From Rhizodiscina lignyota (lineage: Eukaryota): a stretch of 44,830 bases of DNA. A program made the position numbers and the translations under genes. Where the stretch lies: positions 124,001-168,830 of the forward strand of contig ML978146.1 of the NCBI GenBank assembly GCA_010015805.1, read 5' to 3'. This document shows positions 6,271 to 38,689 of this stretch, piece by piece (within the stretch, counting starts at the first letter, position 1; each line of letters opens with the position of its first letter). Under the pieces are notes generated by a model that was not told where the DNA came from, did no database searches, and worked only from the letters and a program-made list of their open reading frames with translations.

Positions 6271-6812
6271 TGCTCTCGAACAGTTTCTCGAGTTGAATGA
6301 TTACAGAGGAAATAGCAGATTCCAATGATGGTGATTCAATTTCGAAGCAAGTCAAACGCAATATGTTGAACGCAGAGCAGGGTAGTTGTCAATGCTCCGA
6401 AATGCAAGACTGCTTATCTGCGAGCTTGTTCATTGAATTATGCACAACAGCATTTGCCTCGCTCTGCCAAGCTATCAAGTCATACCACTCACGAGTTATT
6501 TGTGGGGAAAGAAGTCGCTTATTCAGAAGAGGCGGATATCCGGCCGAGATGCAGGCAACACGACGAGCCTGTTCGCTTCTGATACCCTGCATTTCCACCA
6601 ACTCTGCTGTGTAATGTTAGGGTTGGCGGCAGATGAGCATTGAAATCGTAGCATGTGCTCGGGTGCACAGTGATTTTCTGGAGCTCCTTGTTGGCGTGTC
6701 GACCGAATCATCAACAGTCGATCACAAATCTCTCTCCTCTCCGAAACTTTCTTCCATTCTCTTACAATCCATCTCTTGCACTGCCAATTGACTGTTGTAC
6801 AGTTGCCAAACA

Positions 6813-8396
6813 ATGGAGGACGCTAAAGCTTATAGCCTTTCTGAGGTTTCGACTCACAAGTCCAGGACGGACGTTTGGATTGCCATCCACGGTAAAGGTA
6901 CGTGAGTCGAAAACATTTCCTCGTCCTGTACGGAATGTCCATTGAGAGTCTACGCGTATTTTTATGACGAGTGCTGCACCATCTGGAAGCCGTGCGTGCC
7001 TTTGTGGCATCAACGTGCTGACGAATGTTCGCAGTGTACAATGTCTCCAAATACCTTGACGAGCACCCCGGCGGCATTGACGCGATTATGGAGGTCGCCG
7101 GCTCCGACGCAACAACCACTTTCGAAGACGTCGGTCACTCGGAAGACGCTAGAGAGGTTATGGAGCAGTATTTCGTTGGCACTGTAGAGGGGCATGTTCC
7201 CACTGCTCCAGCGGTCCGAGGGCCTGCTCCACCTGCCGCTGCGACTGTTGCTCTCGCTGCCCCAGCTGCAAATGCTTCCTCGTCCACCCCAGCGTCCAAA
7301 CCAACGCACAGCCCAATGACACTGCTCATCCTCGGGGTCCCGGCTGCGGCGATTCTGGGTTACCAGCTTCTCGTTCGGATGCCTGGTGGTCACTCTGTGT
7401 CTGGCCATGGCCACGGTCATTCAGGAGGATTCTGGACGGGCTTCTTGATTTCCAGCACGCTTGGAACGTTCGTCCTCGCGACCGCCATCATCCGCCTGGA
7501 GAAGGCATTCAGCATCTCTCGCGACATTGGCTCTTTCCCAACTCACATCACCCCGACGAACCCGGTCACTGTCCAAGTGACGACGAACAAGGGCGTGTTG
7601 AATCCCAAGGAGTACCAGCGCTTCCCCTTGGCAAGAAAGGAGATGATGAGTCCTAACGTATGTCTGTTTGTGTTCCGCCTGCCGACTCCACGCTCTATTC
7701 TTGGTCTACCCATTGGTCAGCACATCGCCATACGTGCCACTGTCAACGGGAAACAGATAAGTCGATCGTACACGCCAGTGAGCAACAACACGGATAAAGG
7801 AGAGCTGCGTAAGTTTACCACGATACTTATGCACCACAGTGGCTGCTAACAGAAAATCAGGACTCGCAATCAAACTCTACTCCAATGGCCAGCTCACAGG
7901 CGGTTACCTTGCGAACCTCCAAATCGGCGACGAAGTCGAGTTCCGCGGGCCTAAAGGCACAATGCGCTACCGCAAGGGACACTTCAAGCAGCTCGGCATG
8001 ATTTGCGGCGGTACAGGCATCACGCCCATGTTCCAGCTCATCCGCGCCATCTGCGAAGATCCCGCCGATGATACAAACATCAGTCTCCTCTTCGCCAACG
8101 CGACCGAGAACGACATCATCATGCGCGACATGTTGGAGGAGTGGCGGGCTAAAAACCCGAAGCAGTTCAAGGTGTGGTACAAGCTTGACCACCCGCCGGA
8201 AGGGTGGACTTATGGAAAAGGGTATATTGCGAAGGATGATATTTTGACGAGGTTGCCTCCGCCAGCGGCGGGTACGCAGATCCTACTATGTGGGCCGCCA
8301 GGCATGGTGAAGGGTGCCTCGAAGAGTTTGCTCGAGCTGGGTTATGAGAAGCCGAATGCTGTGTCAAAGGCGGCGGATCAGGTCTTCTTGTTCTAA
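6813..8396 (+). CDS. Cytochrome b5 - NADH:cytochrome b5 reductase fusion protein with two central hydrophobic segments
   Basis: Exons 6813-6897, 7035-7808, 7861-8396. b5 heme motifs [21 protein letters not shown] and FEDVGHS; Pro/Ala linker; hydrophobic segments LLILGVPAAAILGYQLLV and FWTGFLISSTLGTFVLATAII; reductase motifs RSYTP, GGTGITP, CGPPGM. Confidence 0.92.
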
Positions 8397-14742: not shown

Positions 14743-14939
14743 GGTGTCGGCGCGTTTATAATTGTCAATGGGCGATATCAAAGTTGCGCTTTTAGTGGTG
14801 AGGAAAACTTGAAGCTGTTCGGCGCTGGCAGAATATCGGCCCGGAGTCGGGAGCTCTACAAAAAGTTCGAAATCTTGGCATTGCAGATATATTTTTTGTG
14901 CGATTCACTCTACAACCATTCAATTCCATACCAACAAAT
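14743..14939. promoter_or_regulatory. Compact bidirectional promoter between MRPL27 and UTP14
   Basis: Only 197 bp separate the two divergent start codons. Confidence 0.6.
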
Positions 14940-17771
14940 ATGCCCGCGAGATTATCGAGGAGCTCTGTCTCCACCGAGGAACCGCACTCGAAGCGCAAGC
15001 GCGTCCAGAAGCGTGCGCTGAACGCCCTCTCCATCGCGGAAGAGGAAGAGCCTGACCGACCGCGAGTGCGACAACACCGCCTGGGCGAATCAGAAGGTGG
15101 CGAGTCGAGATGGAAGCGTCGAAGACTTGAACATGATGAGGAAGAAGATGAAGAGGAGGATGGAGATTCGGCATCAAGGCGCAGACAAAAGCATGACTCG
15201 CGCCGCGAAAGAGGGGACGAGCTAGATGTGTCGGAGGGGAGCGACAGCGAGGGGAATACTTGGCAGATGGGGCATGTGGATGAGGATGACGATAGTGATA
15301 TTGATAGCGATGATGCTTTTGGGGATAGCGACGAAGAAAGATTTGAAGGGTTCACGTTTCGAGGCTCGTCGACGAACAAACCGAAACCAAAGCGAGACAG
15401 AGCCTCCGATGGTGATGATGAGGACCTTTTGGATGAGGATGGGAAGGGCGATGCAGACAACGACGATGATGATGAGAGTCTTGGAGAAGAGGCGGTGGAT
15501 CTTGCTACAATGCTAGATAATTACGAAGAGGAGGAGGAGGAAGAGCAGGGCGGACGGCGTTCAGGAGCGCAGCAAAAAGGCTCTCAGGACGACAAGGAAG
15601 ATATATGGTCTCCCTCTGAGGATGAAGCAGAACCCGACGAATCTGCTGGGCTTGCAAAAATGAGCGCAATTGTATCAGCTCTACCCGTGGAGGATGACGA
15701 TGACACGACACAGCGCAAGTCCTTCACGAGTCAAGGATTACAACCTGGGAAGACCGCCACCAAACAGAAAGTGACATTTGACGATCTACTCGGGAAGAGT
15801 ACCGGTACCGATATCGCGGTTTCGAAACGCGCTCGCAAACTGGCGACAATGAATGACAGACCTTCCAAGAATAGTGGAGCATCTGGAAGACTTGATGTGG
15901 CCCCAGCAAAGAGAGTGAAAGATCAGAACGAGCGCAAGGCAGCAGACAAGAAGGCGAGGGAAACACTGGACCGCTGGGTCGACACTGTCAAGCACAACAG
16001 GCGAGCAGAGCATGTATCGTTTCCACTTGCCGATCCAACGATGTCTACACCGGCTGGAGCGAAGCGACTGCTTCCCACTTCGGCATCTCTTCCGGCTACG
16101 GATTTGGAGAGCGCCATCTCGAACATCCTGCAGGAAAGTGGTTTGGGAGGGCCTGGCAAGAAGGATGAAGAAGAAGAGATTCAGGAATTCGAAGAGCTTC
16201 AGATGCGCAAGATGCCGATTGAGGAGGTCGAAGCTCGACGCGCACAACTGCGAATGGCACGAGATCTCATGTTCCGAGAGGAGATCCGGGCAAAGCGGAT
16301 CAAGAAGATCAAGAGCAAGGCATACAGACGTGTCCATCGGAAGGAGAAGGAACGAGCTGCGCTCAGAGATGCAGATATCTTTGGCGAGGGGGAGATGTCT
16401 GACGACGAGCGCGAAAGACTAGATCGACGTCGAGCGGAAGAGCGAATGGGCGCTAAGCATCGAGACAGTAAATGGGCAAAGAGTATGAAGCAGGCTGGTA
16501 GAGCGGCTTGGGATGAAGACGCTCGTGCCGGTATTGTGGATATGGCGAGGCGGAATGAGGAGTTGCGGAGAAGGATCGAGGGGAAGGAAATGCGAGAGGA
16601 GAGTGATGAGATTTCAGAGTCGAGTGATAATGAGGAGGGGGACGACGATGAGGGAGCGACGAGGAAGATGCAGCAGAAGTTGAACAATTTGCAGCGTACG
16701 GACGACTCCAAGCTGTCCGGCATAGCTGGCATGAAGTTTATGCAGGTTGCTGAAGCAGCGCGCAAGGCTCAGAACGACGAAGACATCGATCGACTGCGGC
16801 GAGAGCTGGCTGGTGAAGATTCTTTTGAGGACAAGTCCAACGACGAAGAAACAAACGTTCAAGGACGACGGAAGTATGGGCCGAAAGAAAGACAAGCTTC
16901 AAAATCTGCGATTACGGCAGCCCCTCAAAATCGCAGCGAATTCGAAGAGCGCAATGAGTCTGACGGCGACGATCAGGGCGAAAATGATGAGGTTGGAATC
17001 GCCATGGAACGCAATGACCAAGCTACACAGTCAAACAAGTTCAAGCAGAAATTCAGGCTGCCAAACAAGCTAAGCAACAATGTTGATCAGCAGGTCATCG
17101 AACATGACGAAGAAACCGAGAACCCTTTCCTGAACCCGAAGAAGCGCAACAGAAAGAAGAAGGCAGAAACACAGGCTTCAGTCGATGTCTCCAAGAAGGG
17201 AGCCTCTCCTGATGCTGCTACCGATACCGACGGCTGGATCACGGTATCTCACAAGCAAAATGGTGCTGAAACCGGGGTCAGCGACAATGAGGAGGAACCA
17301 CCTACTCTCTCTCGCAACGAGCTGCTCGTCCAACAAGCCTTCGCCGGCGACTACACCGCAGAGGATTTCGAGAAGCAAAAGAATGCCGTCATCGAAGAAG
17401 AAGACGAGAAGGTCATCGACAACGCTCTGCCTGGCTGGGGTTCCTGGGCCGGCGCTGGCGTCTCCAGGCGCGAACAGAATCGCAACAAGGGCCGCTTCCT
17501 CACGAAGCAAGACGGTGTGAAACTCCAGGACAGGAAAGACGTGAAACTCAAGAACGTTATTATTAACGAGAAGAGAGTCAAGAAGAATGGCGCATATCTT
17601 GCGTCTCAGCTACCGTTCCCGTATGGGACGAGGGAGGAGTATGAGAGGAGTATGAGGATGCCGGTGGGTGGGGAGTGGAATACAAAGGTCACGTTGCAGG
17701 AGAATGTTAAGCCGAGGGTGCTGGTTAAGCAGGGAATGGTGATTAAGCCTATTGAGAAGCCGTTGGTGTAG
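14940..17771 (+). CDS. UTP14: U3 snoRNA-associated SSU processome protein Utp14
   Basis: Intronless acidic/basic ORF with Utp14 signatures RAKRIKKIKSKAYRRVHRKE, ERMGAKHRDSKWAK, LPGWGSWAG, VIINEKRVKK, QLPFPY and EYERSMRMPVGGEWNT. Confidence 0.95.
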   Translation: MPARLSRSSVSTEEPHSKRKRVQKRALNALSIAEEEEPDRPRVRQHRLGESEGGESRWKRRRLEHDEEEDEEEDGDSASRRRQKHDSRRERGDELDVSEGSDSEGNTWQMGHVDEDDDSDIDSDDAFGDSDEERFEGFTFRGSSTNKPKPKRDRASDGDDEDLLDEDGKGDADNDDDDESLGEEAVDLATMLDNYEEEEEEEQGGRRSGAQQKGSQDDKEDIWSPSEDEAEPDESAGLAKMSAIVSALPVEDDDDTTQRKSFTSQGLQPGKTATKQKVTFDDLLGKSTGTDIAVSKRARKLATMNDRPSKNSGASGRLDVAPAKRVKDQNERKAADKKARETLDRWVDTVKHNRRAEHVSFPLADPTMSTPAGAKRLLPTSASLPATDLESAISNILQESGLGGPGKKDEEEEIQEFEELQMRKMPIEEVEARRAQLRMARDLMFREEIRAKRIKKIKSKAYRRVHRKEKERAALRDADIFGEGEMSDDERERLDRRRAEERMGAKHRDSKWAKSMKQAGRAAWDEDARAGIVDMARRNEELRRRIEGKEMREESDEISESSDNEEGDDDEGATRKMQQKLNNLQRTDDSKLSGIAGMKFMQVAEAARKAQNDEDIDRLRRELAGEDSFEDKSNDEETNVQGRRKYGPKERQASKSAITAAPQNRSEFEERNESDGDDQGENDEVGIAMERNDQATQSNKFKQKFRLPNKLSNNVDQQVIEHDEETENPFLNPKKRNRKKKAETQASVDVSKKGASPDAATDTDGWITVSHKQNGAETGVSDNEEEPPTLSRNELLVQQAFAGDYTAEDFEKQKNAVIEEEDEKVIDNALPGWGSWAGAGVSRREQNRNKGRFLTKQDGVKLQDRKDVKLKNVIINEKRVKKNGAYLASQLPFPYGTREEYERSMRMPVGGEWNTKVTLQENVKPRVLVKQGMVIKPIEKPLV

Positions 17772-20477: not shown

Positions 20478-21514
20478 ATGTCCGATAGCCGTCCGAGACG
20501 GTTCCGACTGCGCTATGTAGCGGCGGTGCTCGCACTGTTTGCCGCTGTAATAATGGGTAGGTGGAGTTTCTTCTCTCAATGCTGGACAGGAAGCATGATC
20601 AGGACTTTTCCAAAGCTGCTTCAACCTCAACCTGTCCCACTCAACGCCGCTATTTGATCGTAGATGCTAAGTCTTCCGTCTTTACAGGCCTGGTCGCGAG
20701 TAATGGCGCAGAATCTCCATCCGTGGAAGATTATTACAGCTCTTTCGAGTCCCGACTTGGGTATTGGTTGCTACTGGGCAACACCAGACACTGCGGACTA
20801 TACAAAAAGGGACAGCTTTCTCCATTCCCTATCTCGAGAGCGCAACGCGCAATGGAGGAGAAACTTTACACACGTCTTGGGCTAAAGGAAGGAGCCCGGA
20901 TCCTGGATGCAGGCGCTGGCTCCGGCTATGTTGCTATATATATGGCGCGGAAGGGTCTTAATGTCCAAGCAATCGATGTTACACCCCACCACTTAGTAGA
21001 TGCCCAAAAAAATGTTCGAGAGAATGGACTAACAGAGAAGATCGCCGTCGATTACGGCGACTATCACAATCTGACGACGTTCAACGACGAATCCTTCGAC
21101 GGCATTTATACTATGGAGACGTTTGTCCATGCAGACGATCCTGTCAAAGTGCTCAATAACTTCTATCGCCTTCTGAAACCTGGTGGTGTACTAGTCCTCC
21201 ATGAAGCTGATTTCAACCGGAACTCGCAGAGGCTGCAAGAGGTCCTCCGTCTATCCCACTGTGGGAATACACTGGAAGAAGGCGAGTATCGTAAGCTCGC
21301 CGAAGAGGTCGGATTCAAAGATTTTACCTTGGAAGACCTAACGGATGAGGTCTTGCCAATGTGGCGGCTCTTTGGTGTTGTTGGCTATGTTCCGTACCAG
21401 CTCTTCAAATTGCTTGGGATTGCTCATAGATTTACAAATGTTATGGCTGGAGTTGAAGCATGGTTGAATTGGGGAGACGGCAGGTACATTTCAGTGCGTG
21501 TTGTCAAACCTTGA
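20478..21514 (+). CDS. Class I SAM-dependent methyltransferase (sterol-methyltransferase-like) with N-terminal signal anchor
   Basis: Exon 20478-20556 (MSDSRPRRFRLRYVAAVLALFAAVIM), intron 20557-20687 (GTAGGT...GCTAAG...TACAG), exon 20688-21514. Motif I ILDAGAGSG, plus FDGIYTMETFVHA and LLKPGG. Confidence 0.87.
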
Positions 21515-21797: not shown

Positions 21798-23354
21798 AGC
21801 ACATTAGATTGTGTGCAATAAATAGTATCGCAGTTGCAGCTTGCTTCATGTCCACGAGTGTTGAGTGTTCTGCCACTCTAGTCAAGTGCTATGCTATTAA
21901 GGTTAACGCGTAGGTTTTAGTTTCGGGCTATTCTAAATCCAATTGCACTTCGAGATTTATGAATTTCGATGAATATCGGAAGCGCAATTAAGCACACTCA
22001 AACACCATTGCAAGCCTACATGTGGAACCGTTGAGCCGCAATCAGGTCCTCTACAATAATAACTCTTCACAATGGGGTTTCTACGCTTTGAGCGCAGCCA
22101 GATGGCAACAGCTGAAATTGAACAGTCCGACCCGATATATATATGTACAGTTGTACACAAAAGAACGTGTGATGAGGCATTGTTTAGATGGATCGGCTCT
22201 CCGCCACCTTATCAGGCTTCTATACTAATGTTTTATCTGTAAGTTAAGACCCTCCACTTGTTCTCTGCTCTTATTCTTTATTTCATTTCGTTTCTGCTCA
22301 CCAGTACTACAGGAACCTGTGATACTACCTTCTGCCAGGTCATCAGATGTAGGCATTCGTACGAGACGGCCAACCTGAAACATTTCTTACGAGTGTTTGA
22401 ACTTTGAGACGGCCTTTAGTTAAGCTTAATTTTCAAAAGACCAATAAGAGGGCCTCGTCTTGATTGAATTAGTCGTCGTTATCTTGCCATAACTTAGGCC
22501 CGGCGAGTGGCGCGTAGTGTTGCACATTTTGCATGTGCAATTTGGTGTAACCACCAATCAAGTATCGCGGCCTCTGTTCATTCACCATCTTCTCAAATGG
22601 ACCCTTGAATCAAATCATCCGCCTCGCCTATCTCATCCATCTCACCGTAGTAATTGCCACTTTACGTCTTGCGTCAAAAGTCTGATCTAATTTGTGGCTG
22701 CGGTATTTGCGTGCTGACAAGCTCTTTAAACTGCATACCACAACCTTGTTGTTCCTTGATTCGGGGCGTCAACCGCGCAAGATACAAGATTTTCGTTTCA
22801 ACTCCGAGCGACTGAGATCCGAAGGCTTCTTCCAAGAGGCTAGTATGGCTACCAGCCGCGACGATTCGGAGGTTACTGTCGATCTTTCCTACATTCCAGA
22901 GCGCATACCAGGCCGCGTCGCCTCAAGACCATGCTCTTGAGCAATTCGTCTCCACCTTGGAGTCTCCACCTACCTCTTGTCCTTGGCGTTCAGTGCGCCC
23001 TATTCGATGTTGTCCAAAATGAATCGCTTTGTAGTGGAGCTGAGGGAGAATGGTCACGGGTGAGGCGCTGAAGGCGCTACCATTGAGACAGAATTTCTCT
23101 ACTGTTCTTATACACGAGGTGCAGTTGCTGATCCCACGGCTCTTTTCTCACCACTCATTCCAACAGTTCTTCTTACCAGTCATTCTTTTGTCTGTCCTTA
23201 CCAAAGTCACTCTTTGACGACTTTTGTGCGTCGTTCTTTAACAAGTCACTCCTTAAACAGCATCTTTTCAGCCTCTCCTTTGCAGGAGGTTTACCGGGGA
23301 GACCCCAAATTCCACAGAATCCATTCCTTCCGACCTTTGAAAAACATCACAACC

Positions 23355-24800
23355 ATGCGTGGTCTCACAACACTAGCATTAGGGGCTGTAGGCTGCTTGA
23401 TCGGAAGATCGCTGGCTGTTCCTACGCCTGTGGTAATTGTGACTCCAGGGGATGCTAGTGATGTTGTGATTTCATCGAACAATACGGTGAATGCCACGGC
23501 TCCTGCGCCCTCGACCCCTCCTTCGACCAAGAGCCATACTATTGTTACGCCTAGAGATACAGCAGACACTGTCATTACGGCAAGAAACGTTTTGAATGCG
23601 ACAACGAGTGGTTCAGCGGCGGATGCCAACTTGGTCGGCAGGTCAACTGGCCAGCTACCCCTTTCTCTGGTCAACAACTTTGCTGGATCAATCAACGCCT
23701 ATGTTACTGGTTTGGATGTTAACGGCCGGCTCGTTATGCTCCAACCAGACGGTACATTTCTCTATCCGTCCTGCGACAGTGCTCAAAGCACGCCTCAGCT
23801 CATTACGGACAATATCGCTATCCCACTTGGTGCGAAGGGCAGCACATTAAACATTACAATCCCAGGATACATATCTGCGGCTCGAGTGTGGTTTGCAGCG
23901 GGTGACCTGAAGTTCTTCGCCGTCTGGAACCCTGCGACCAATGCACCGTCACTTGTCGAGCCTTCCTCGGTGAACCCTTCAGACCCATCTGCTGCCGTCA
24001 ACTGGGGCTTCGTTGAACTCACGTACGTTGAGAACGGTGGCTTGTATGCGAATATTAGCTACGTCGACTTTGTGGGCCTCATCTTGGGGATGTCACTCGC
24101 TGTTACCGATGGCTCTGGCACCCAGTCAGCTCTTGGCCTTGCGGCGGATGCGATCTCAAATATATGCAGTGCCCTTGAGTCACAGGGCAAGAGCGATGGC
24201 CAAGAATGGGGCAACCTCTGCATGGCCGACAGTGAAGGAAATTTATTGCGTGTCATTGCTCCAAGCGACTATGTCTCTTCCAATCCAGACGCTTTTAGCA
24301 CTTTCTGGAATGAATACATCGACGACGTCTGGGAGCAGTTCACCACGGATGTGCTCAGCATTGATACCCAAATGAGTGCCGGCATTGTGAACTGCACAGT
24401 GCAGACTGACGATCTCTTGCATTGCGACGGCGACAGTCGTGGCTACGCTAAACCTGTGGCTGCTGATATATTTGGATGCAACACCGGGCCTTTCGGAATT
24501 GAAGCTGGTGACAACGACGTCCATAGCGCTGTTGTTCCTCGCCTCTGTGCGGCCTTTGATCGCACCACTCTTTCGATGGAAGGTGGAAATATCCAGCCTA
24601 GCCTTGCAGCACAGAGCTACTACCAAAGCGCACCCACGAACTGGTACAGCAAGTTTGTGCACCAGCATGAGGTCGATGGCAAGGGGTATGCATTCTCATA
24701 CGATGATGTTAACCCTGACGGAGATGTCAACCAGAGTGGTGTGGTCGCAAGCGCAAATCCCGAGACATTGACGGTTATTGTTGGAGGTCCTCTTTCGTAG
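23355..24800 (+). CDS. Secreted GH64 beta-1,3-glucanase with repeated N-terminal pro/linker region
   Basis: Signal peptide MRGLTTLALGAVGCLIGRSLA. GH64 motifs WGFVELT, LYANISYVDFVG, IFGCNTGPF, PRLCAAF, TNWYSKFVH, GKGYAFSYDDV. Confidence 0.9.
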   Translation: MRGLTTLALGAVGCLIGRSLAVPTPVVIVTPGDASDVVISSNNTVNATAPAPSTPPSTKSHTIVTPRDTADTVITARNVLNATTSGSAADANLVGRSTGQLPLSLVNNFAGSINAYVTGLDVNGRLVMLQPDGTFLYPSCDSAQSTPQLITDNIAIPLGAKGSTLNITIPGYISAARVWFAAGDLKFFAVWNPATNAPSLVEPSSVNPSDPSAAVNWGFVELTYVENGGLYANISYVDFVGLILGMSLAVTDGSGTQSALGLAADAISNICSALESQGKSDGQEWGNLCMADSEGNLLRVIAPSDYVSSNPDAFSTFWNEYIDDVWEQFTTDVLSIDTQMSAGIVNCTVQTDDLLHCDGDSRGYAKPVAADIFGCNTGPFGIEAGDNDVHSAVVPRLCAAFDRTTLSMEGGNIQPSLAAQSYYQSAPTNWYSKFVHQHEVDGKGYAFSYDDVNPDGDVNQSGVVASANPETLTVIVGGPLS

Positions 24801-28438: not shown

Positions 28439-29504
28439 GTCGGAAAGATTGACCAGCAAGAGGGTCTTGAAACAAAGTATTGGAAAGTGTGAGGCATCAA
28501 GAGAGAACGCGTTCACTCAACAGGATGTGACAACAAGGTTGGCAGTGCACCTCCAACAAGGAAGGAACGTCTCAAAGCAGAGTTGGCATGAGGAAGTCGC
28601 GACGGAAGGCATCGTGGGGTTTTGTTTCAACACACACAAGGCTGCTTGGAAATGCTTGCCCTTGTTCATGGCGCTGCTTAAGGGCAGATGGCGTCCAAAT
28701 TCACTTCGGGAGCTCCGGGCTTCCATGCAGCCAACGTGCTCCGGTGGAGAGACGGGAATCCTCAATTCGCTGATCAGCAATGATCCCGGATGTCCAGCAC
28801 TACGGGAGGCTGGGTGTGCTTCCTTCATGCCAAGGAAACGGTTGAAGACTCGGAGAGTTGTTTGCCCACTCTCTCGTCGCCGATTGCTTAATGAAACCAT
28901 TAAAGGCTCCGAAGCTTCTTCCTGTACTCCGTAAACTGACAACCAGAAGTGCCATTTGACACGGATGAAATTGAAGTGAGAGATCAGACCAAGCGTGAGG
29001 ACAAACCTACTGGTTCATTGCGACTGGCTGAGCTCGTAGGATCATTATCCACGCTGGATGGCAATAAGGCAGGGCTCTGCTGGGCTGCAGAGGTGCGATG
29101 CACGTAGGTTCGTGCTCAGCCTCAAGAGGTACTGGTGATGAGATTTCAGTGTCTCGATTGGAGCAAAATTACAGCGTTTTGTATCAAATCCCTGCTACCT
29201 CGGCAAACTCTGGAGCCATCCCTTAAGAGGCTTAGTCCAGGGGCACGCGACACTTCGGCGTCTCGCCACGATGAATACGAACTTGTCAGATGGGCATTGC
29301 CCTTTTTTCACGATCGGTAGCCTATTCGTAGCGTATAAGTTGTGGCGATTTCCTCCTTCTTTTCTTTGTCTCTTCATCCAGTCACTCGTTTCTTTGTGCT
29401 GTCGCTCGTTCGCATCCACTCGTTCGAATTTACCGTCGTTTACCTACCTAATCGTCGACACTAATCCCACAAACATCCCATTCTCCGCTGCCAATCTCTT
29501 CAGA

Positions 29505-30152
29505 ATGCTGTCCCAACTCATCGTCGTCGCTCTTGGCGCTTCGCTCGCCCTCGCGAAAACGGATATCGCTGGTTGCACCTCGTCGCAAACGACCGATCAA
29601 TGGGGAGAAGCGTCCATGATCTACTGGCTGCCTGGCAGCGGCGAAATCTGCGCGTTCCTCGACTGCGGCGGTGGCATGGCCCCTCCAAAGACGGACGTTC
29701 CCGGCTGCGCTGCCTACTCTGGCACTGCTACATACTCTCCCAGCTACATGCCAGGTTGGGGATCGGCGTCGGCGACCTCTGCCGCAGCGGCATCTACCTC
29801 TGCATATGCGTCGATGACTGAGTCCTCCCTCTCCTGGAGCGACGCCCTCACAATCACGGCCACTGCCTCTGCATACTCGACATCCTCGCCCTCGTACTCC
29901 TCGTCCATAAGCGAAGCACCGAGCGTAATCACGTCCGTCATTGGTGGTACTTCCGCTGCCGCAATCACACCCGCTCCATCTGTTGGCGGCACAACTGCTG
30001 CTGCTGGGAATGGTACAACTGGATCTGTCACAAAGGGCTCCCCGTCAGCATCACCAAGCCAGTTTGAGGGTTCTGCGAGTGGAATGGGCATTGGCATGGT
30101 GCAGGCCTTTGGAGTTGCGGTGGGAGTCCTGATCGCAGCAATTGCACTGTAA
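29505..30152 (+). CDS. Secreted Ser/Thr/Ala-rich, probably GPI-anchored cell-wall protein with a small Cys-containing N-terminal domain
   Basis: Signal peptide MLSQLIVVALGASLALA; domain KTDIAGCTSS...GEICAFLDCGGG...VPGCAAYSGT; S/T-rich stalk; hydrophobic C-terminus after FEGSAS. Confidence 0.85.
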   Translation: MLSQLIVVALGASLALAKTDIAGCTSSQTTDQWGEASMIYWLPGSGEICAFLDCGGGMAPPKTDVPGCAAYSGTATYSPSYMPGWGSASATSAAAASTSAYASMTESSLSWSDALTITATASAYSTSSPSYSSSISEAPSVITSVIGGTSAAAITPAPSVGGTTAAAGNGTTGSVTKGSPSASPSQFEGSASGMGIGMVQAFGVAVGVLIAAIAL

Positions 30153-30473: not shown

Positions 30474-32456
30474 TTAAAGAGTAGTTTGGATGAGCTTGCG
30501 GTTGACAAACTCTCCAATACCCAACTCCGACAGCTCCCGACCAAAGCCAGAGTTCTTGATACCGCCAAAGGGCACCTCAGGACCCGTGTTGGCACAGGAG
30601 TTGACGAAAACCATACCGGAGTCGACCTTTGATGCAACTTCTTGCGCATGCTTCACATTGCCGCCGAAGACTGAGCCCCCCAGTCCAAATTTCGTCGCAT
30701 TGGCTAGCTTAATAGCCTCTTCTTCGGTATCAACGGCATAGAATGATGCGATTGGGCCAAATGTCTCCTCCTGGTAGAGCGGGTTGTCTGGCTTGATGTC
30801 CGTAATAATGGTCGGCTCCATGTACCAGCCAGGACGGTTAATCCGCTTTCCACCGAGCACTACTTTGGCTCCATGTGCCTCTGCTCGTTCTACTTGTTCA
30901 AGCAGACCCACGAGAGCACGCTTGGCGAACAGTGGACCCAGAGTCGTTTTGCTGTCGGATGGGTCTCCTGCCTCGAGTGCGGCCATGCGCTTGATCATGC
31001 CGTCGAGGAAGATCTTCGCACGATCCTTTCCAACGACAATAAAACGCTTTGAAGAGACACACGCTTGGCCCATACAAATCATTCGGCCCATCACGCCTTG
31101 ATTGATTGTGCTTTCAAGATCAGCATCAGGGAGAACAATGAGTGGATCGCTACCGCCAAGCTCAAGGACGACCTTCTTCAGATTCCGACCCGCTCGCTCA
31201 GCAACGGATGCGCCAGCCCTCTCACTGCCAGTCAATGTTACTCCGCGGATACGGAAATCATCGATCAGCATGTTAATCTGAGGGATTGTGCTGAACAAGT
31301 TCGTGTAGACGCCCTTTGGCGCGCCAGCCTCATCGAAGAGCTTCTCAAACGCCAGCGCACACTGCGGTGTGCTTGGGGCATGCTTACACATGAGAACATT
31401 TCCAGCAACGATTTGTGGAGCTGCGACGCGAACTAATTGGTAGTATGGGAAGTTCCACGGCTCGACAGCGAGGATAGCACCAATTGGTTCTGTTGCGAGA
31501 ATTGCACCTGGTGCTTCTGGGACCTCCTTCGTTTCCAAGAACTTCTCGCCGTGTGTGGCGTAGTAGTCGAGTATATCTACTGTCAGGTTAACTTCGTACC
31601 GCGACTGGTCAATGAGCTTGCCCATTTCGTGCGTCATCAGCTGCGAGTACTCTTCGGCCTTTTGACGCAGGATGGCACCAGCTCTGCCGACAATTGCCGC
31701 TCTCTCCTTGACTGGACGTAGCTTCCAGTCGTTTTCGTAGACGTGGTGCGCCCTTTCCAATAACGACATGACCTCTTCGTCTGTCGTCTCGGGGAAGACC
31801 TGCTCAAGCTTTTCCGTTACGGGGTTGAGCGTCTGGTACTCGCTGACATGTGCTGGCTTTGAGGGTGCAGGTGCAGACTTCTCCACGGGTGCTTTCACAT
31901 CGAATCCGTTCAGTGTCACAGAGACGAGGAGGTACGAACCAACCAGATAGACGAGTTCGCGGTACCCATCTTCGCCGAGCAGCTTCACTGCGTTGTTGTA
32001 GATGGCATCTGGCACCACACCGCCACGAGTAAGAGAATCGGTGACATCGTACGCAGCGGCCTCTTTTCCTTGGACACTGGCAGGCCGTGCGCCCTTTGCG
32101 AGCGTATCGATCTGGGCCTTGTTGATCCCGAGTTCCTTGGAGAGACCGGTATGGGCGTATAGCTCGTATGCCGCCTTGAAGTGCGAGCCGACTTTGAGAA
32201 TGGCGACTTGTCGCACGCTTTGAGGCAGCTTGGCTTGAGTCGTGATGACTTTGACGAAGTTCCAAATCGCACCGCATGTGGAAGGATCTTGAAGCCAAAC
32301 ACTCCATGGTCCCGTCAAGGCGCCTTGGTCTGTCTCCGTCTGGAAGCCATGCAGATCAGAGGCGATGACGGATTTCATGTCATTATGAAGGGCGAGTTGC
32401 TGTGCCGACAGCTGGTTGGGTGGAATGGGTGGCGCACGCATGCTGGAAGTTGGCAT
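30474..32456 (-). CDS. Fusion of a carboxymuconolactone-decarboxylase/AhpD-like domain (about aa 6-188) and an NAD(P)-dependent aldehyde dehydrogenase of the succinate-semialdehyde dehydrogenase GabD1/Sad type (about aa 208-660)
   Basis: Single intronless 660 aa ORF. N-domain GALTGPW...RQVAILKVGSHFKAAYELYAH...LVGSYLLVSVTLNGFDV; linker KAPVEKSAPAPSKPAH; ALDH motifs EPWNFP, KHA, TGSERAG, LELGGSDP, GQAC, EETFGP, PFGGIKNSGFGRE. Start may be 32456 or 32441. Confidence 0.88.
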   Translation of the reverse strand: MPTSSMRAPPIPPNQLSAQQLALHNDMKSVIASDLHGFQTETDQGALTGPWSVWLQDPSTCGAIWNFVKVITTQAKLPQSVRQVAILKVGSHFKAAYELYAHTGLSKELGINKAQIDTLAKGARPASVQGKEAAAYDVTDSLTRGGVVPDAIYNNAVKLLGEDGYRELVYLVGSYLLVSVTLNGFDVKAPVEKSAPAPSKPAHVSEYQTLNPVTEKLEQVFPETTDEEVMSLLERAHHVYENDWKLRPVKERAAIVGRAGAILRQKAEEYSQLMTHEMGKLIDQSRYEVNLTVDILDYYATHGEKFLETKEVPEAPGAILATEPIGAILAVEPWNFPYYQLVRVAAPQIVAGNVLMCKHAPSTPQCALAFEKLFDEAGAPKGVYTNLFSTIPQINMLIDDFRIRGVTLTGSERAGASVAERAGRNLKKVVLELGGSDPLIVLPDADLESTINQGVMGRMICMGQACVSSKRFIVVGKDRAKIFLDGMIKRMAALEAGDPSDSKTTLGPLFAKRALVGLLEQVERAEAHGAKVVLGGKRINRPGWYMEPTIITDIKPDNPLYQEETFGPIASFYAVDTEEEAIKLANATKFGLGGSVFGGNVKHAQEVASKVDSGMVFVNSCANTGPEVPFGGIKNSGFGRELSELGIGEFVNRKLIQTTL

Positions 32457-34160
32457 TCAAGTGGTCGACTGTTGTCTCTGCTGGAGGTGCTGGAGGCTGT
32501 GGGGCCGACGACAATCGCGCTGGACGAAGAAAGGCCTGCGGGTTGAACTTGAAGGATTGTTGTGAAGAGGTGGATTGTTGCTGGTCGCTCATGAACTCCT
32601 CCGAGAGTGCTGGGCTTAAGTACCTGCAGAGCCATGAGTACGAGTCTTCAGAGCCTCATCCAGACCCTCAAATGCTTGTTTAGCATCGAAAGAGCCACCA
32701 CTCACGAGCTGCAATTCACTCGGCCGGCTACTTACTAATGATCAGTTCACTTGTGTCCGGGATCTCCGGAGACGACTCTCGCACACACGGGACTTCTCAA
32801 ACGGGTTGTAGATTCATTTAAAACGTCGCGCCCTCGGGTGCTCGAAGGGAGAGCAAGAAGCTAAATAGTGGCGAGTCAGCAGCGGCCGCCGCAGGGGTGA
32901 TGGAGCGCAAACCAGAAGGGGTAAGGGTCTGATCAGTCCACAATTCCATAATACACTGAGCAGTGCTAACAATCGCATAGGCTATTAGTAATTGCTGAGT
33001 TTGATATATTCTCGGTCCTCCGATTACATTAAGCAGTTCGACGGAGAGCGAAAACCGTTGAAAGCGCGCCGGCGGCAGACCACTACCACGACTATACACC
33101 ATTATCAAACAATTTGCTGCACGAGAATTATCTCTAGCTCGATTCGGATTTCAAAGCAATGTAGACGAACCATCCATTGGACAGGCGAAGGGATGATGAA
33201 CCGTGTGGTACACGTAACGCCATACTTAGTGGCGGAGTTTTAACCTCGAACATGGCCTGACGAGACGATACGGAGTTATCAACCGTTGCAACCCTGGCTC
33301 TGGATAAAGCTGCCTCTCGTGCTGTCAGCTCCACTAAGATGCTGCATGATCTGGACGTTGAATTGATTATGGATGACAATTCAGAAGAGCATGCCAGGTT
33401 GGAGTTGAACCGACCCGAGCAGAGTTACGGCCGCAGAAATTCGGAGCGGAGAATAAAGGGAGCACGATGCTCCTCCTCGAACAAACGAAGCGGACATCGA
33501 ACACACGCAATTGCTATGAAGCAGGCCGCAGGAACTTCTCGCGCAATACAGTACAGAACCTCATTGTCTCAGTGGAGTCTCGCGCGATAACCCCTAGCGC
33601 CGCGGACTTAACCAGAATGGAGATGTGCCTAGCGGCATCCTGCTGGCCCGCTAATTGAATCAGCTAAGGATCTCTCTGTTTGATTGGGCTGCAAAAGCCT
33701 GACCGAGCCCAGATGTGCGATTAAACAAGCTTCTTCTGGACCCCTTTTCGGAGGCATGGGCGCAGGCGCATGATACATTAGGCAGATGAGACTCGGACGG
33801 ATTAATGCCGTAATCAATCGATAGTCTCAACATGTACAAGCCCAGTCACAAGCCATGCTCCTTATGCACGATGGCCTCTGAGAGCTGCTTTCTCCACAAC
33901 TCCACGACGGTCTTCCTGCAGTGACTAAGAATTAACCAATCTTTGTCTTTGCAACATCTAGAATGACCTTCCAATCGCGATCACATCGATCATACGACTT
34001 CACGTCGGCAGCCTGAGCCCGTTTTCTTGGCTCGCCTCCTTACCTCCGACACATTCCAACGGACTGTCTCCCGAGAGAAAAGTACAAAGGAATACCACGG
34101 CCTCCATGTCTAAATTCGAACAATTCAGATTTACATCAGCAGGATAAACAATCTGTCAGG

Positions 34161-35523
34161 ATGGCGGAAGAAATTCCCGAGTTTTGCAAGGCTGGAGTGG
34201 TCACCAAATATGGTCCTGACTTTGAGGTCAAGGTTGAGATGGTTCCAGTTCCAGAGCCTGGTGAGTATCGACGCCAAGATAACAGTGCCTGAACTTTGAT
34301 CAACCGTATCCAGGGCCTGAAGAACTTCTCATAAGGCTCAATGCGACCGGAATCTGCTTCACCGATCTTCACTATGCAATGGGAGATATGGCGTTTCCCA
34401 AGATGGAGGAGTTTGGCGTTCGCTCTCCTGGCCAGTGAGTCATCCCTTTAGGACGTCAGAATGTCTTTTGGGAGAGAGAAATAACAGTCTTTTTCACAGC
34501 GAAGGAGCAGGTGTCGTCGTCAAACTGGGATCAAATGTGACGGGTTGGACAATCGGTGAGCGGGCTGGAATCAAGCCGGTTTGGAATACCTGTGGAAGCT
34601 GTGAATTGTGTTTTGGAAACAAGGAAACGTACTGTCCATTTGCACAGTGGACAGGTCTCTCAAAGGCAAGTTCCAAGAGCCCTGAGAGCTTATGGCTGTT
34701 GAAGCTGACCGCGATTCCAGCCGGGTACATATCAGCAATATATTGTCTCTCCTGCACGATACACAACACGGATTCCAGAAGGTGTCAGCGATTATGTAGC
34801 TGGACCAGTGATGTGTTCTGCATCCACTGTTTACCGATCGCTTGTGGAAGCGGAACTCAGGGCTGGCGATTGGGCTTGCTTTCCTGGAGGAGGTGGTGGC
34901 GTTGGCATCCAAGGAGTTCAGTTGGCGAAGGCGATGGGTTATCGCCCCGTTGTTGTCGACTCTGGAGACGACAAACGGAAACTGTCTATGGATATGGGCG
35001 CCGAAGCCTTTGTGGACTACAAACAAGCAGAGGATGTGGCGAAAGAAGTCGTCAGGGTCTGCGATGGCGTGGGAGCGCATGCTGTCTTTGTAACTGCGGT
35101 ACAGGCATATCGGACCTCGATTAGTCTCGTTGGTACAAGAGTCGGAGCCAAAGTTATGTGCATTGGGCTGCGTGAGTATTTCCATCGTTATTTTCAAAGA
35201 ATCCTTGGTTTGGCTGACAGGTTGAATCAGCCGCCGCCAATTCAGTCACGATCAGTACCGATCCTTTCTTTGTCGTGCTCAAGAACTTTGAGCTGAAAGG
35301 CACGCTCGTCGGTTCAATGGAAGATACGTCTCGAGCATTGGATTTTGCTCGAAGGGTAAGTTGCTTTATGCTGTGGATTATGCAACAATGGAAGCTCACT
35401 CAACATCAGGGCCTCCTTCATCCGATCTACGAGCTTTTCCCAATAGACCGTCTACCTGAAGCGGTTGAGAAGCTGAGACATGGTCATGTGGCCGGTCGCT
35501 GTGTCGTGGACTTTAATGCTTAG
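34161..35523 (+). CDS. Zinc-dependent (MDR) alcohol dehydrogenase
   Basis: Exons 34161-34260, 34314-34434, 34500-34665, 34721-35171, 35231-35355, 35410-35523. Motifs GICFTDLH, GHEGAG, structural Zn CGSCELC-x7-C, PVMC, GGGGGVG and GRCVVDF. Confidence 0.92.
34666..34720 (+). other. Non-canonical GC-AG spliceosomal intron in the ADH gene
   Basis: AAG|GCAAGT donor, GCTGAC branch point, CCAG acceptor. Removing this 55 nt joins TGLSK to PGTYQQY in frame. Confidence 0.85.
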
Positions 35524-36271
35524 GGAAATGGGTGGGCCGCTGAGCGGAGTCGACTGAGCAGACCGCACAATAAGTGAGCACTTTTAAACGCCAACAACAC
35601 CTGAATCCTCCTCAAGATGACTCGAACGCAACCGAACCAAGAACGACATGTAGCATCTATGCATAGAGTAGTTGTTAATCAATGACACGACTTGACTGAC
35701 TCATTTCGAATTTGATGACATTCAAATCGAAAATGCGGGGACGAGAGTTGGCCCAACGATCGGTTCGAGTTTGAGATAATGTTCTATCAATATCTCCCAA
35801 CGGCAATTAAGTGTCTGAAGAAGAAAGTAAGTGCGCGAGCGCCTCAGCTTTCGGGTGAGGTGGAAATAGACGTAAATTACATAAGCCAGAGGACATAGCA
35901 GTTCGCGCTAGGAGCTAACGCTAGGAGATAACTGGATACGCTGCATCGCTGAATGGTCGGCGGAGATTGAAATGGTCGTCCACCTTTGCCTATCATATCT
36001 CAAGCTCGGATCCTTGTAATCAGTAGTAAGCGTCTCTTCTCTTCAACCTTTTCTAAACAATTTCAACAAACTGCGCTCAACGATTCTCTGCGATGGGACA
36101 TTCAGCGGCGTCTCCAAAACAGCTTAGTGTCCTTTTCGCCGACCAGGATGGCCGCCAAGGCTCGGCGACGTTGGCGCAATCTTCGCGTGGGCGTATCTGC
36201 ATCATCATCCCTCGTTTCTGCGCGTGAGGACATGTGCATTCCGCTGCTTGGTAATGTGATACCAATTCGAA

Positions 36272-38689
36272 ATGCCGACGACCGTATCTTCGCAAGAAGG
36301 AGACTCTGCTACTGCGGAACCCAGGCGGAAGCGATGCAGGATTACTTTCAGCTGTACCAACTGCCGCCGGAGCAAGCAGCGAGTTCGTGCGACCAGCGGC
36401 CAGCTTGTCTTTCCGTGACATCTGTAGAGCTGACCCATCTCAGTGTGATCGAGAGAACCCGTGCCGAACCTGCGTGATCCGCGGAAAGCAGGACACCTGC
36501 CAGTATGAGGAGGGCATTTTCGAGTAAGCGCCTGTCAAACCCTGCGGAATTGCATTTTGGACCCAAGTTGAACGACATAGTGCTAGGGACAATCGTGTAT
36601 CACCTGTGCTCCTGCCTTCTCAGGAGAAGCGCCAACGTGACAGCCCACATTCCTCGTCTCATCATAAGGACCTGTCCTCTTTCGGATATTCCAATCTATA
36701 TGACCACAATGCTCTCGGAATACTAAAGAAGCTGCAGCGATTTGACGTAGGCACGAATGTCTCTTCGCTCGGATCTGAGGAGTCGGGAGTATTCTTGCCG
36801 GAACGGTATCGAGATGAATACAAGGCCGTTCTCCAACGGCTCCCTTGCCAGCAGTGCACCCAAGCGTTGGTGGCTATTTTCTTTAAGGAATTCAACTGGA
36901 ATTACAGGTATACTCCACTGATGCAATCGAATTTTGAAGAAGTGCTGATGTTCTTCAACAATGGCAGCCTGTTAGATGACGCTTTCTTTGATGACGAGCT
37001 TCGACGCTTTTACGACCGCACCGTTGGCAGTGCTCTGCAACGTCTCGACGTTGGGAATCTAGTATTTCCTACTCTGCTGTTTCAAGTTATTGCCCTCGCA
37101 TTGCAGTTTATGCCCTCGGAGCATGAACGGTGCCTTGACGAGCATGGCTGCATTGACGCCTCGCGCTCAGATGGCGGCAAATTCTTCAGTGGACTTGGTG
37201 CACGACTCTGGACTCTATTTGAGAAGAATGCCACTTGTTTTTTGTCCGTACAAGCGTCATTTCTGAGAGTCTGCTGGCTGAAGAACAGTGGTCGTGTCGT
37301 TGAGTCCTGGCATGGCCTTGCCCAGGTTGCCATGGATGCGCAGGATATTGGACTGCACCGAGAAGATGGAAGGATTGAAGCCACAGATGCGGAGACTGCT
37401 GTTGCTCGGTCATGGGAAGTCGTTTTGCGACGACGGCTGATAGTCAATCTGTTTCTGTGGGAAACGTACGACCACCTCTCTCTCAGAACATGTCCGAGAG
37501 TTTACTGACATTTCACAGTCAGATGGCGATGATCCTTGGCAAGTCCATAAACCTTTCACTTGGTGACTTCCATATCATCCCTCCTGTAGACACTGCGATT
37601 CCCAAAAATCGGACGACGTCACTTCCATTTGCTCGGAGGGACTTGGAGAAGCCGAATTCGTTCACCGCGCGACTTTTGGAATACCGCCTTCAGGTTCACC
37701 TGCCGCGGATTATCGCACTCGAAGCTGACGGGCCGTTTCCGAAGGACTACACGAAGGTTGAGAAGCTTCATCAGGAGGCGTTGGACTATATCGATTCACT
37801 TCCACCGATATACCGGTTCGAGAATCCAGATACGTCATTTGATGCTGAATGTCAGTGGCTTCCTGCGCAACGAGAGTTTCTCTGCACAGTCACTTGGCTT
37901 TTCGTCCTTCTTCTCCACCGGCCATATATTTTCTCCATTGCCAGAAGCCGCACGGAAATAGTCAAAGCCAGCATCGAAATGCTCTCTGCTCAGCAGCGAA
38001 TCCTCTATCGCTTGCGCCCGAACCAATACAGGTTCTTCATTCTCTCCTTCATCAGCGTGGAAGCCTCTATCTCCCTGTTGGCAGTGTTCATTGCATATCC
38101 TAGTGAGAATAAGGCACTCCTGTCGGAGGCTTTCCGCTGTGTGAAGGAGACTTATTTCCGACTGAACGTCGTCATGCGAGATTTGAACGGCTTCGCTCGT
38201 CCCGGCGCCGATGTCATTCGGACTCTTTTCGCGCGGGCTGAGAAGATTCATGGCGTCGTGTCAGGGAATGACAGTCAAGCGGCTGGCACTCTGCATGCCA
38301 AGCCGACATCTTTCTCCGACACTGTGCCTGCTTCTGTGGTGCTTGATAATGACCGAAGCGGACCTCGGGTGAATCCAAACGATCATTCAGCTGCCAGCGT
38401 ACCTTCGAATTTGCAGTCCACGCCATATGACGCTCCATCGGCGCCAATTGATACTTTCGAGGACGTGGATTACGGCTTTTTGGCGATGCCTCTACATCCG
38501 TCAGCGGACCTTATGTACAATAATCTTGCGCCGGTTCAAAGTGGTGAACCTAGCACAGCACACAGCACTTTTCACCAGCCGTCAGTGGAGGACGACATTG
38601 ATGCAACGGATCATACTGAAATTCCTCAACAGTTTACTGGGTCATTTGGGGAGCACTCGTTCTGGAACTTTGTCAACGAAGGCTTGTAA
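36272..38689 (+). CDS. Zn(II)2Cys6 transcription factor with fungal-specific TF middle domain
   Basis: Exons 36272-36382, 36444-36523, about 36581(or 36587)-36907, 36968-37465, 37519-38689. The spliced cluster reads CTNCRRSKQRCDRENPCRTCVIRGKQDTC. Middle-domain motifs AQDIGLHRE, RRRLIVNLFLWE and LLLHRPY. Confidence 0.9.

Follow-up and report, generated by a model that had tools for sequence, protein, structure and literature searches.

Proteins that join a carboxymuconolactone decarboxylase (CMD) family domain to a second enzyme are known from actinobacteria, where PcaL-type fusions combine a CMD domain, a true PcaC, with 3-oxoadipate enol-lactonase, an alpha/beta hydrolase that serves a neighbouring step of the pathway. 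The gene analysed here resembles PcaL in that a CMD-family domain is fused to another enzyme, but it is fungal rather than bacterial and the partner is an aldehyde dehydrogenase (ALDH) rather than a hydrolase. It lies on the reverse strand at 30474..32456 of a 44,830-nucleotide stretch of Rhizodiscina lignyota DNA (assembly GCA_010015805.1, contig ML978146.1, positions 124,001 to 168,830), referred to below as the window. Two further described systems are needed for the comparison. For AhpD of Mycobacterium tuberculosis, an excerpt of PMC3141380 describes a proton relay that includes Cys130 and Cys133; the same excerpt reads the exchanged Cys130 equivalent of TTHA0727 as a sign that peroxidase activity is lacking, and it gives AhpD-like proteins as mostly hexamers, trimers or dimers. 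For the cyanobacterial succinate semialdehyde dehydrogenase (SSADH), an excerpt of PMC7510979 places the substrate carboxylate near Trp135, Arg139 and Ser419, with Cys262 as the nucleophile and Glu228 as the base.

We regard it as virtually certain that the window holds an intact fungal gene in which a cysteine-less AhpD/CMD-fold domain is joined to an SSADH-type ALDH. The open reading frame (ORF) is single and unbroken, with 660 codons counted from Met1, a stop codon at 30474-30476 and no stop through the linker. A TGA is the codon immediately upstream of Met1, so the frame cannot extend further in the 5' direction. Translation is more likely to start at Met6 (32439-32441), giving 655 residues, because the starts of bacterial stand-alone relatives align there and because the database copy of the window protein, P0002 (655 residues), begins there as well. 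The opening MRAPPIPP, which the original prediction had likened to that of bacterial CMD-family proteins, indeed matches their first residue in the alignment. The first five codons of the ORF (in 32439-32456, reverse strand) may be 5' untranslated region.

Residues 6-190 (31887..32441) form the AhpD/CMD-fold domain, which belongs to a Cys-less AxxExxxH subfamily, and residues 206-660 (30477..31841) form a complete ALDH of the Sad/YneI/GabD1-like type. Between them lies the predicted linker that had been described as rich in Pro, Ala and Lys; it is found at residues 191-205 (31842..31886), is rich in Pro, Ala, Ser and Lys and is predicted to be disordered. A full-length AlphaFold2 model based on a 58-row alignment had a mean predicted local distance difference test score (pLDDT) of 90.8 and a predicted template modelling score (pTM) of 0.72, with a pLDDT below 50 at residues 193-201 of the linker. 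The length and sequence of the linker vary between groups of fusions. The protein is thus modelled as two well-folded domains on a flexible tether, without confident packing of one against the other. For the channelling of a reactive aldehyde that the original prediction had put forward as a possibility, the model therefore offers no confident domain arrangement. A complex prediction for the ALDH half with the CMD half gave a score of 0.00, which weighs neither way on binding. The gene is a true fusion of two modules, each of which is also known as a separate gene, as had been proposed from the letters.

The assignment of the C-terminal half is straightforward at the family level. Pfam Aldedh (PF00171) covers residues 205-655 with 419.8 bits against a cut-off of 23 (E 1.5e-125; profile positions 7-460 of 461). 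Together with this full-length domain, the catalytic motifs bear out the earlier statement that the ALDH is complete: Glu432 of LELGG (31161..31163) is the general base and counterpart of cyanobacterial Glu228, and Cys466 of GQAC (31059..31061) is the nucleophile and counterpart of Cys262. The half opens with EYQTLNP at residues 206-212; the original prediction had likened the YQTLNP opening to that of stand-alone GabD1/Sad enzymes. Among solved structures, the highest scores went to 3vz0, a putative NAD-dependent ALDH (477 bits), and 4ogd, the SSADH of Streptococcus pyogenes (429 bits), followed by the Synechococcus SSADH structures 3vz1-3 (360 bits) and Sad/YneI enzymes (344 bits), a type to which 8qmq (Sad) also belongs.

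By alignment, Trp135, Arg139, Ser419, Cys262 and Glu228 of the cyanobacterial enzyme correspond to Tyr339, Arg343 (31428..31430), Thr624, Cys466 and Glu432 of the fusion protein; Arg343 is the counterpart of the Synechococcus SSADH arginine by the substrate carboxylate. Arg343, Tyr339, Glu432 and Cys466 are invariant in all 55 aligned family members. The carboxylate-site trio reads Tyr339/Arg343/Thr624, against Tyr/Arg/Ser in the S. pyogenes SSADH (4ogd), and the position of Ser157, a cofactor determinant, is occupied by Pro361, a residue that 3vz0 has there too. Compared with Sad/YneI-type SSADHs, the fusion protein thus matches along their full length over its C-terminal 460 residues and keeps the catalytic Glu and Cys and the carboxylate-site Arg; it differs in the additional N-terminal part of about 200 residues and in having Thr624 as the equivalent of Ser419. 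We class this half as being of SSADH type, without filing it as a proven SSADH; judged from its residues, its substrates would, by a slight lean, belong to an SSADH-like class.

The N-terminal half is less readily recognized by profile searches. Pfam CMD (PF02627) gave the window protein 14.5 bits at residues 68-140, below the gathering score of 23. Among the relatives, T. viride P0122 (15.6 bits) and P0126 (19 bits) also fell below this cut-off, and the bacterial members P0136 (31.2 bits) and P0140 (25.1 bits) were above it. When residues 1-196 were used as a query, 34 proteins matched at E<=0.001 among 146 candidates of 107-343 residues. Most of these were 188 residues long and 40-54% identical (50-54% for stand-alone relatives of 188 residues), and their source labels read 'carboxymuconolactone decarboxylase family' or 'alkylhydroperoxidase family'. 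An exhaustive HMMER search with the CMD half retrieved 2882 representatives at E<=0.001, 26 of them at E<=1e-30. The AlphaFold2 model of this half, built on 62 family sequences, had a mean pLDDT of 95.2 and a pTM of 0.90; a Foldseek search of the PDB yielded 19 matches with E<=0.001, of which the listed ones are of AhpD/CMD type or peroxidase-related, and the full-length matches 2prr, 6k40 and 6e8l had TMq values of 0.72-0.77 at 12-17% identity. The N-terminal half is a real domain despite its weak Pfam score.

The absence of a CxxC motif and the presence of AYELYAH, both noted in the original prediction, were borne out, AYELYAH being found at residues 96-102. In a profile alignment with the AhpD-core chain 2ouw, the two CxxC cysteines correspond to Ala95 and Glu98, and a histidine that follows them to His102; the motif Glu98-x3-His102 lies at 32151..32165. 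His102 is invariant and Glu98 nearly invariant in the 62-sequence family alignment, which consists mostly of stand-alone proteins of about 190 residues, and no conserved cysteine was found among the fungal CMD copies aligned. Since both CxxC cysteines are absent, AhpD-type redox chemistry is excluded for this half. What it shares with AhpD and AhpD-like proteins (2prr, 6k40, 6e8l and PA0269, 2o4d/7xw1) is the all-helical fold across about 190 residues and the retained histidine; what sets it apart, besides the low identity, is Ala95 and Glu98 at the cysteine positions.

A second point of comparison is PcaC. A genuine PcaC from a Jiella genome (TIGR02425, 188 bits; locus L081), whose neighbouring ORFs look like protocatechuate dioxygenase subunits, has an ExxxH motif that lies within one Pfam CMD profile position of the Glu and His of the AxxExxxH family. 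The Pfam family of the close bacterial relatives is also that of PcaC. In contrast, PcaC proteins have about 130 residues and are found within pca clusters, whereas the N-terminal half has about 190 residues and no pca genes lie near the fusion, whose neighbours in the window are an alcohol dehydrogenase (ADH), a regulator and a Ser-rich protein. The CMD-like family also occurs in other architectures (P0265, P0158, P0172, P0304), namely a nitrilase-type CN_hydrolase domain with CMD, PGRS repeats with CMD and TagF_N with CMD, and as tandem double CMD proteins of 376-439 residues; none of these includes an ALDH.

Full-length fusions (at least 99% coverage, 653-665 residues) accounted for 8 of the best 120 homologues listed for the whole protein, and all of the named ones are fungal. 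They comprise the window's own copy, the proteins of Fonsecaea monophora (74% identity), Scytalidium lignicola (63%), Paecilomyces lecythidis (59%) and P. variotii (58%), and three others. Two further models, that of Rhinocladiella mackenziei (504 residues) and P0012, keep part of the CMD half; P0012 and P0142, a CMD piece of 150 residues, each derive from a 2235-base contig. When the CMD half alone was used to look for longer proteins, seven matched, six of them fungal fusions and the seventh a bacterial TagF_N protein; no bacterial CMD-ALDH fusion was present among the matches listed, here or in the HMMER search. In Trichoderma viride, a CMD-like protein and an ALDH have the consecutive locus tags ACHAQJ_001208 and ACHAQJ_001209, and the longest contig is equally long for the two, so that both modules apparently exist there as adjacent separate genes. 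The architecture is rare and patchily kept among fungi. Public databases already contain the fusions, labelled 'hypothetical protein' or 'aldehyde dehydrogenase domain-containing protein', and the precomputed Pfam annotation of all eight lists PF00171 only. The portions of the full-text literature that were accessible contained nothing relevant on the CMD-ALDH architecture or on the CMD subfamily in these fungi, nor on transfer of fungal SSADH genes. This is consistent with the earlier remark that the architecture had not been characterized, yet with eight full-length copies the fusion is not a singleton.

The history of the two halves was examined in separate trees. For the CMD half, we used the close family of 75 rows (LG+C20 posterior mean site frequency model, quick search, support from the Shimodaira-Hasegawa-like approximate likelihood ratio test, SH-aLRT); a larger tree of 212 rows had long branches, was too noisy and was set aside. 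The ten fungal sequences, together with one long-branch row, formed a single clade (SH-aLRT 95) adjoining a clade of 46 rows, of which the 21 named ones are all Pseudomonadota (Sphingomonadaceae, Aurantimonadaceae, Oxalobacteraceae and others). The ESM Atlas clusters closest to the CMD half are 82-100% bacterial. Within the fungal clade, three subgroups were seen: the window protein with Fonsecaea, P0004, P0005 and P0142; Scytalidium with P0007 and T. viride; and Paecilomyces. The ALDH tree repeats these three subgroups, but unfused fungal ALDHs are scattered between them: those of Exophiala sideris, Elasticomyces, Rhizodiscina, Xylogone, Trichoderma and Sugiyamaella, and further paralogues from Fonsecaea and Cladophialophora. 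The ALDH half lies in a fungus-rich clade, at 60-69% identity to Burkholderiaceae enzymes; its closest bacterial relatives are those of Caballeronia, P. caballeronis and B. cepacia (67-69%), and its family is common, in unfused form, in Pezizomycotina. An approximately unbiased (AU) test, performed under LG+G4 on a group of 12 CMD-linked ALDHs that was defined after the tree had been seen, rejected a single clade for them (delta lnL 233, p 2.75e-73).

Taken with the phylogeny, these relationships suggest that the CMD half probably entered fungi once, from a single bacterial source. Horizontal acquisition, as originally proposed, therefore stands for the CMD half, whose fungal clade lies by a proteobacterial family, and is not supported in the form of a recent transfer: the nearest relatives of both halves are fungal, and the G+C content at third codon positions of the CMD and ALDH halves (0.61 and 0.58) is ordinary against 0.46-0.65 in seven other coding stretches of the window, so there is no compositional sign of recent arrival and any transfer would be old. 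Likewise, of two halves described as bacterial-looking, the CMD half does have relatives of bacterial type and the ALDH half falls in a common, unfused fungal family. The lack of introns, taken alone as a sign of transfer, says little. Two unfused ALDHs of this tree, P0013 and P0014, are labelled Elasticomyces elasticus and Exophiala sideris and have end branches of 0.007 and 0.008. These species belong to different classes (Dothideomycetes and Eurotiomycetes, respectively), and the near-identity of their proteins suggests that the gene was transferred very recently, or else that one assembly is contaminated or wrongly labelled.

Possible remnants of the CMD half or its linker were found outside the intact fusions. 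Locus L102, a 12.5-kb piece of a 297-kb metagenome contig with intron-containing fungal genes, holds an orthologous CMD-ALDH locus at 5929-7984 (forward strand). Its CMD-like half (55% identity) is interrupted by a TAG at 6448-6450, which replaces a conserved tyrosine (Tyr153 of the window protein), and a frame change occurs in the linker at a run of seven G (6563-6569). The ALDH frame is intact (6539-7984, 481 codons, 66% identity) and corresponds to database protein P0032, called from an internal start. Furthermore, the Xylogone ALDH begins with a sequence similar to the linker of its sister, the Scytalidium fusion. Considered alongside the single clade of CMD halves and the rejection of one clade of CMD-linked ALDHs by the AU test, these two cases are most simply explained if linkage or fusion took place once, at an early stage, and the CMD half was later lost several times with the ALDH kept.

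The same locus allowed a comparison of the genes around the fusion. In the window, a 1.7-kb intergenic region (32457..34160) separates the fusion gene from a divergently transcribed zinc-type ADH gene on the forward strand (34161-35526; ADH_N and ADH_zinc_N, exon pieces in several frames), which is followed by a Zn2Cys6/Fungal_trans regulator (36272-38689, forward strand; Fungal_trans match and Cys pattern). Since the coding sequence of each is spread over several reading frames, both are multi-exon genes, in keeping with the introns reported for them originally. In a tblastx comparison of window positions 26-41 kb with L102, only the fusion and the Zn2Cys6 regulator matched; the regulator match is collinear (window 36305-38689 against L102 2378-4643, e.g. 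53% over 215 residues), and the orientation differs between the loci. The unit conserved between these two fungal loci is therefore the regulator plus the CMD-ALDH gene. The ADH was not found in L102 by tblastx and may be a local addition. The other neighbours in L102, an Atg3-like gene and a weak TFIIB-repeat match, are unrelated to those of the window, and the upstream regions of the two loci had no common word of at least 11 bases and no common motif. Further away in the window lie genes for a GH64 beta-1,3-glucanase (23064-24800), a class I S-adenosylmethionine-dependent methyltransferase (20561-21514) and Utp14 (14802-17771), all on the forward strand, none of which is common to the L102 neighbourhood; the Utp14, GH64 and Fungal_trans matches confirm that the window is fungal. 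Just downstream of the stop codon of the fusion, an ORF rich in Ser, Thr and Ala (29271-30152, forward strand) has a hydrophobic stretch at both ends and no Pfam match, and from its sequence looks like a secreted or glycosylphosphatidylinositol-anchored wall protein.

The account that we favour, and to which we attach a fair likelihood as a whole, is that of a two-domain enzyme assembled in fungi with coupled steps. A Cys-less AxxExxxH AhpD/CMD domain would have entered fungi once, most likely from a proteobacterium, and its gene would have become linked to that of a resident Sad/YneI-like ALDH, as in the apparent T. viride pair, before a flexible linker joined the two into one protein. The fusion would then have been kept in a few lineages, namely Chaetothyriales-like fungi including this one, Paecilomyces and Scytalidium, with the CMD half lost or decaying elsewhere and the ALDH retained. 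The Zn2Cys6 regulator appears to travel with the gene and probably controls it, the zinc ADH lying between both in this genome. The ALDH half would oxidise an omega-carboxy aldehyde such as succinate semialdehyde by means of Cys466 and Glu432, with Arg343 holding the carboxylate, and in the N-terminal half Glu98 and His102 may provide PcaC-like acid/base catalysis, decarboxylating or isomerising a carboxylated compound that is either a precursor or a side-product in the pathway of the ALDH. The whole protein would in this way catalyse two reactions of a catabolic or detoxification pathway that is inducible. The catalytic, PcaC-like role of the N-terminal half is the most tentative part of this account and may well prove wrong.

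We considered the possibility that the N-terminal domain is not an enzyme and serves instead as an oligomerisation or regulatory module, for instance as an AhpD-type trimer or hexamer on which dimers or tetramers of the ALDH assemble, or as a ligand sensor. Such a role would fit the oligomeric states given for AhpD-like proteins in the excerpt of PMC3141380, the repeated loss of the CMD half with retention of the ALDH (AU test, L102), and a flexible linker which, with a pTM of 0.72, provides no fixed juxtaposition of active sites. Yet His102 is invariant and Glu98 nearly so in a family whose members mostly stand alone, and in the alignment with 2ouw Glu98 falls on the second cysteine of the CxxC and His102 on a histidine that follows it. 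Their conservation in stand-alone proteins points to a site with an intrinsic function, and we consider a purely non-enzymatic module rather unlikely.

The original prediction also allowed for acquisition of both halves together. If the two had come from one bacterium in a single transfer, as an operon pair or a ready-made fusion, this would agree with the close bacterial relatives that both have (50-54% identity for the CMD half; 67-69% for the ALDH half, in Caballeronia, Paraburkholderia and Burkholderia), with the agreement of the three subgroups between the CMD and ALDH trees and with the operon-like appearance of the adjacent T. viride pair. On the CMD side, we inspected 80 bacterial genome loci, with up to 4 kb on each side, and 80 metagenome loci; the genome contigs were scanned with a profile made from alignment A1, a single fungal sequence having found no relative as query, and locus L019, with no ORF overlapping the match, was dropped from the neighbour analysis. 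An ALDH lay near the bacterial CMD-like gene in one of the 80 genome loci (31% identity) and in two of the 80 metagenome loci, L106 (34%) and the fungal L102, so that neither the 80 genome loci nor the other 79 metagenome loci contained an ALDH of this subfamily. On the ALDH side, 401 Burkholderiales genomes were sampled, eight of which had a strong ALDH match (best 59%). No CMD-family ORF was found by tblastn or with the family hidden Markov model at 14 Burkholderiales ALDH loci (homologues of 31-59% identity, 1.5 kb on each side), and no CMD-like gene lay near a plasmid-borne ALDH of Paraburkholderia largidicola (61.7%), whose neighbours are acyl-CoA metabolism genes and GFA, alkene-reductase and zinc-ADH genes. 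Altogether, 174 bacterial or bacterial-looking loci showed no CMD-ALDH pairing, two having a distant ALDH only.

Since no such pairing was present in the bacterial loci inspected, the fusion probably arose in fungi. Joint transfer is further opposed by the lack of a bacterial fusion among the listed matches, by the different best bacterial relatives of the two halves (Sphingomonadaceae and other Alphaproteobacteria for CMD, Burkholderiaceae for ALDH) and by the many fungi that have the ALDH without any CMD half. Acquisition from a bacterial gene pair was thus not supported by the loci covered: we regard a joint transfer as highly unlikely, and the join itself was very probably assembled in fungi rather than imported. 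The bacterial neighbours named by Pfam were of unrelated, housekeeping type (dnaN, recF-like, recJ, UbiA, Coq4, patatin). In one case, on the Sphingomonas aliaeris plasmid NZ_CP061037.1 (L100:4895-6615), a CMD-like gene (39% identity, H29) overlaps an NAD(P)-ADH gene at its stop codon, within a same-strand cluster that also contains two catalase-family genes, an alpha/beta hydrolase, a type-1 glutamine amidotransferase (DJ-1-like) and a second ADH; as a single case, this cluster hints at carbonyl or oxidative-stress metabolism.

An antioxidant role for the N-terminal half, which would then shield the ALDH, or clear peroxides alongside aldehydes, as an alkylhydroperoxidase or thiol reductase, might be read from the best fold matches, which are AhpD-type proteins, and from the S. 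aliaeris cluster described above, with its catalase-family, DJ-1-type amidotransferase and ADH genes around the relative H29. It is very improbable, since both CxxC cysteines are gone and no cysteine is conserved among the fungal copies, and since, in the excerpt of PMC3141380, Cys130 and Cys133 are part of the AhpD relay and peroxidase activity is regarded as lost when Cys130 is replaced. An artefact of annotation or assembly, or a locus expressed as two proteins, is scarcely credible as an explanation of the fusion even if related loci are split or broken (the T. viride pair, L102), as the window DNA is one continuous frame without a stop in the linker, seven other independent sequences keep a single ORF of 653-665 residues, and the start methionine of stand-alone ALDHs has no equivalent at the junction.

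Several observations weigh against the account of a fungal-assembled enzyme with coupled steps. As to its origin, both trees are quick searches with midpoint roots and many rows without an organism name, and the bacterial ALDH neighbourhoods covered are those of genes with at most 61.7% identity, against 67-69% for the closest ones, from Caballeronia and P. caballeronis. The two lesions of L102, one of them in the run of seven G, could be assembly errors. As to function, the neighbours of the bacterial CMD-like genes show no conservation (the most frequent family is present at 9 of 79 loci) and give no hint of a pathway; the repeated loss of the CMD half shows that the ALDH works alone, and an accessory domain without catalytic function would fit this as well. 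The ALDH half falls below all NCBIfam equivalog cut-offs (NF006915, 444 against 730; NF010575, 379.7 against 855), and an NCBIfam search with residues 1-201 returned no family at E<=0.1, TIGR02425 included. When the AxxExxxH family profile was compared with true PcaC by hhalign, the motif stayed unaligned and a spurious 30-column match was obtained (probability 1.7%); a local pairwise alignment with the Jiella PcaC did not bring the motif into register either. The analogy with PcaC rests on Pfam coordinates and a short motif, and is a lead rather than a membership.

A bolder version of the favoured account would make the Cys-less AxxExxxH family an undescribed class of cofactor-free decarboxylases or isomerases. 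Joined in these fungi to an SSADH-type ALDH, such an enzyme would make a reactive semialdehyde from a carboxylated lactone or enol for immediate oxidation, and with the Zn2Cys6 regulator (and here the zinc ADH) it would form a novel inducible catabolic module acquired partly from bacteria by fungi whose genera are associated with habitats rich in toxins and hydrocarbons. We think this a long shot.

Because the precomputed annotation of all eight fusions lists the ALDH domain only, architecture searches based on that annotation will miss this fusion. Its N-terminal half belongs to a large family of 188-residue proteins without assigned function, and the fusion to an SSADH-type ALDH is one of few leads on the role of the Cys-less branch of the AhpD fold. 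The gene also appears to offer an evolutionary example in which a probable transfer from a bacterium to a fungus was followed by gene linkage, fusion and repeated loss, with one copy apparently decaying. Both domains come from known families; the novelty lies in their combination, and, as far as sequences and models can tell, its significance would be moderate.

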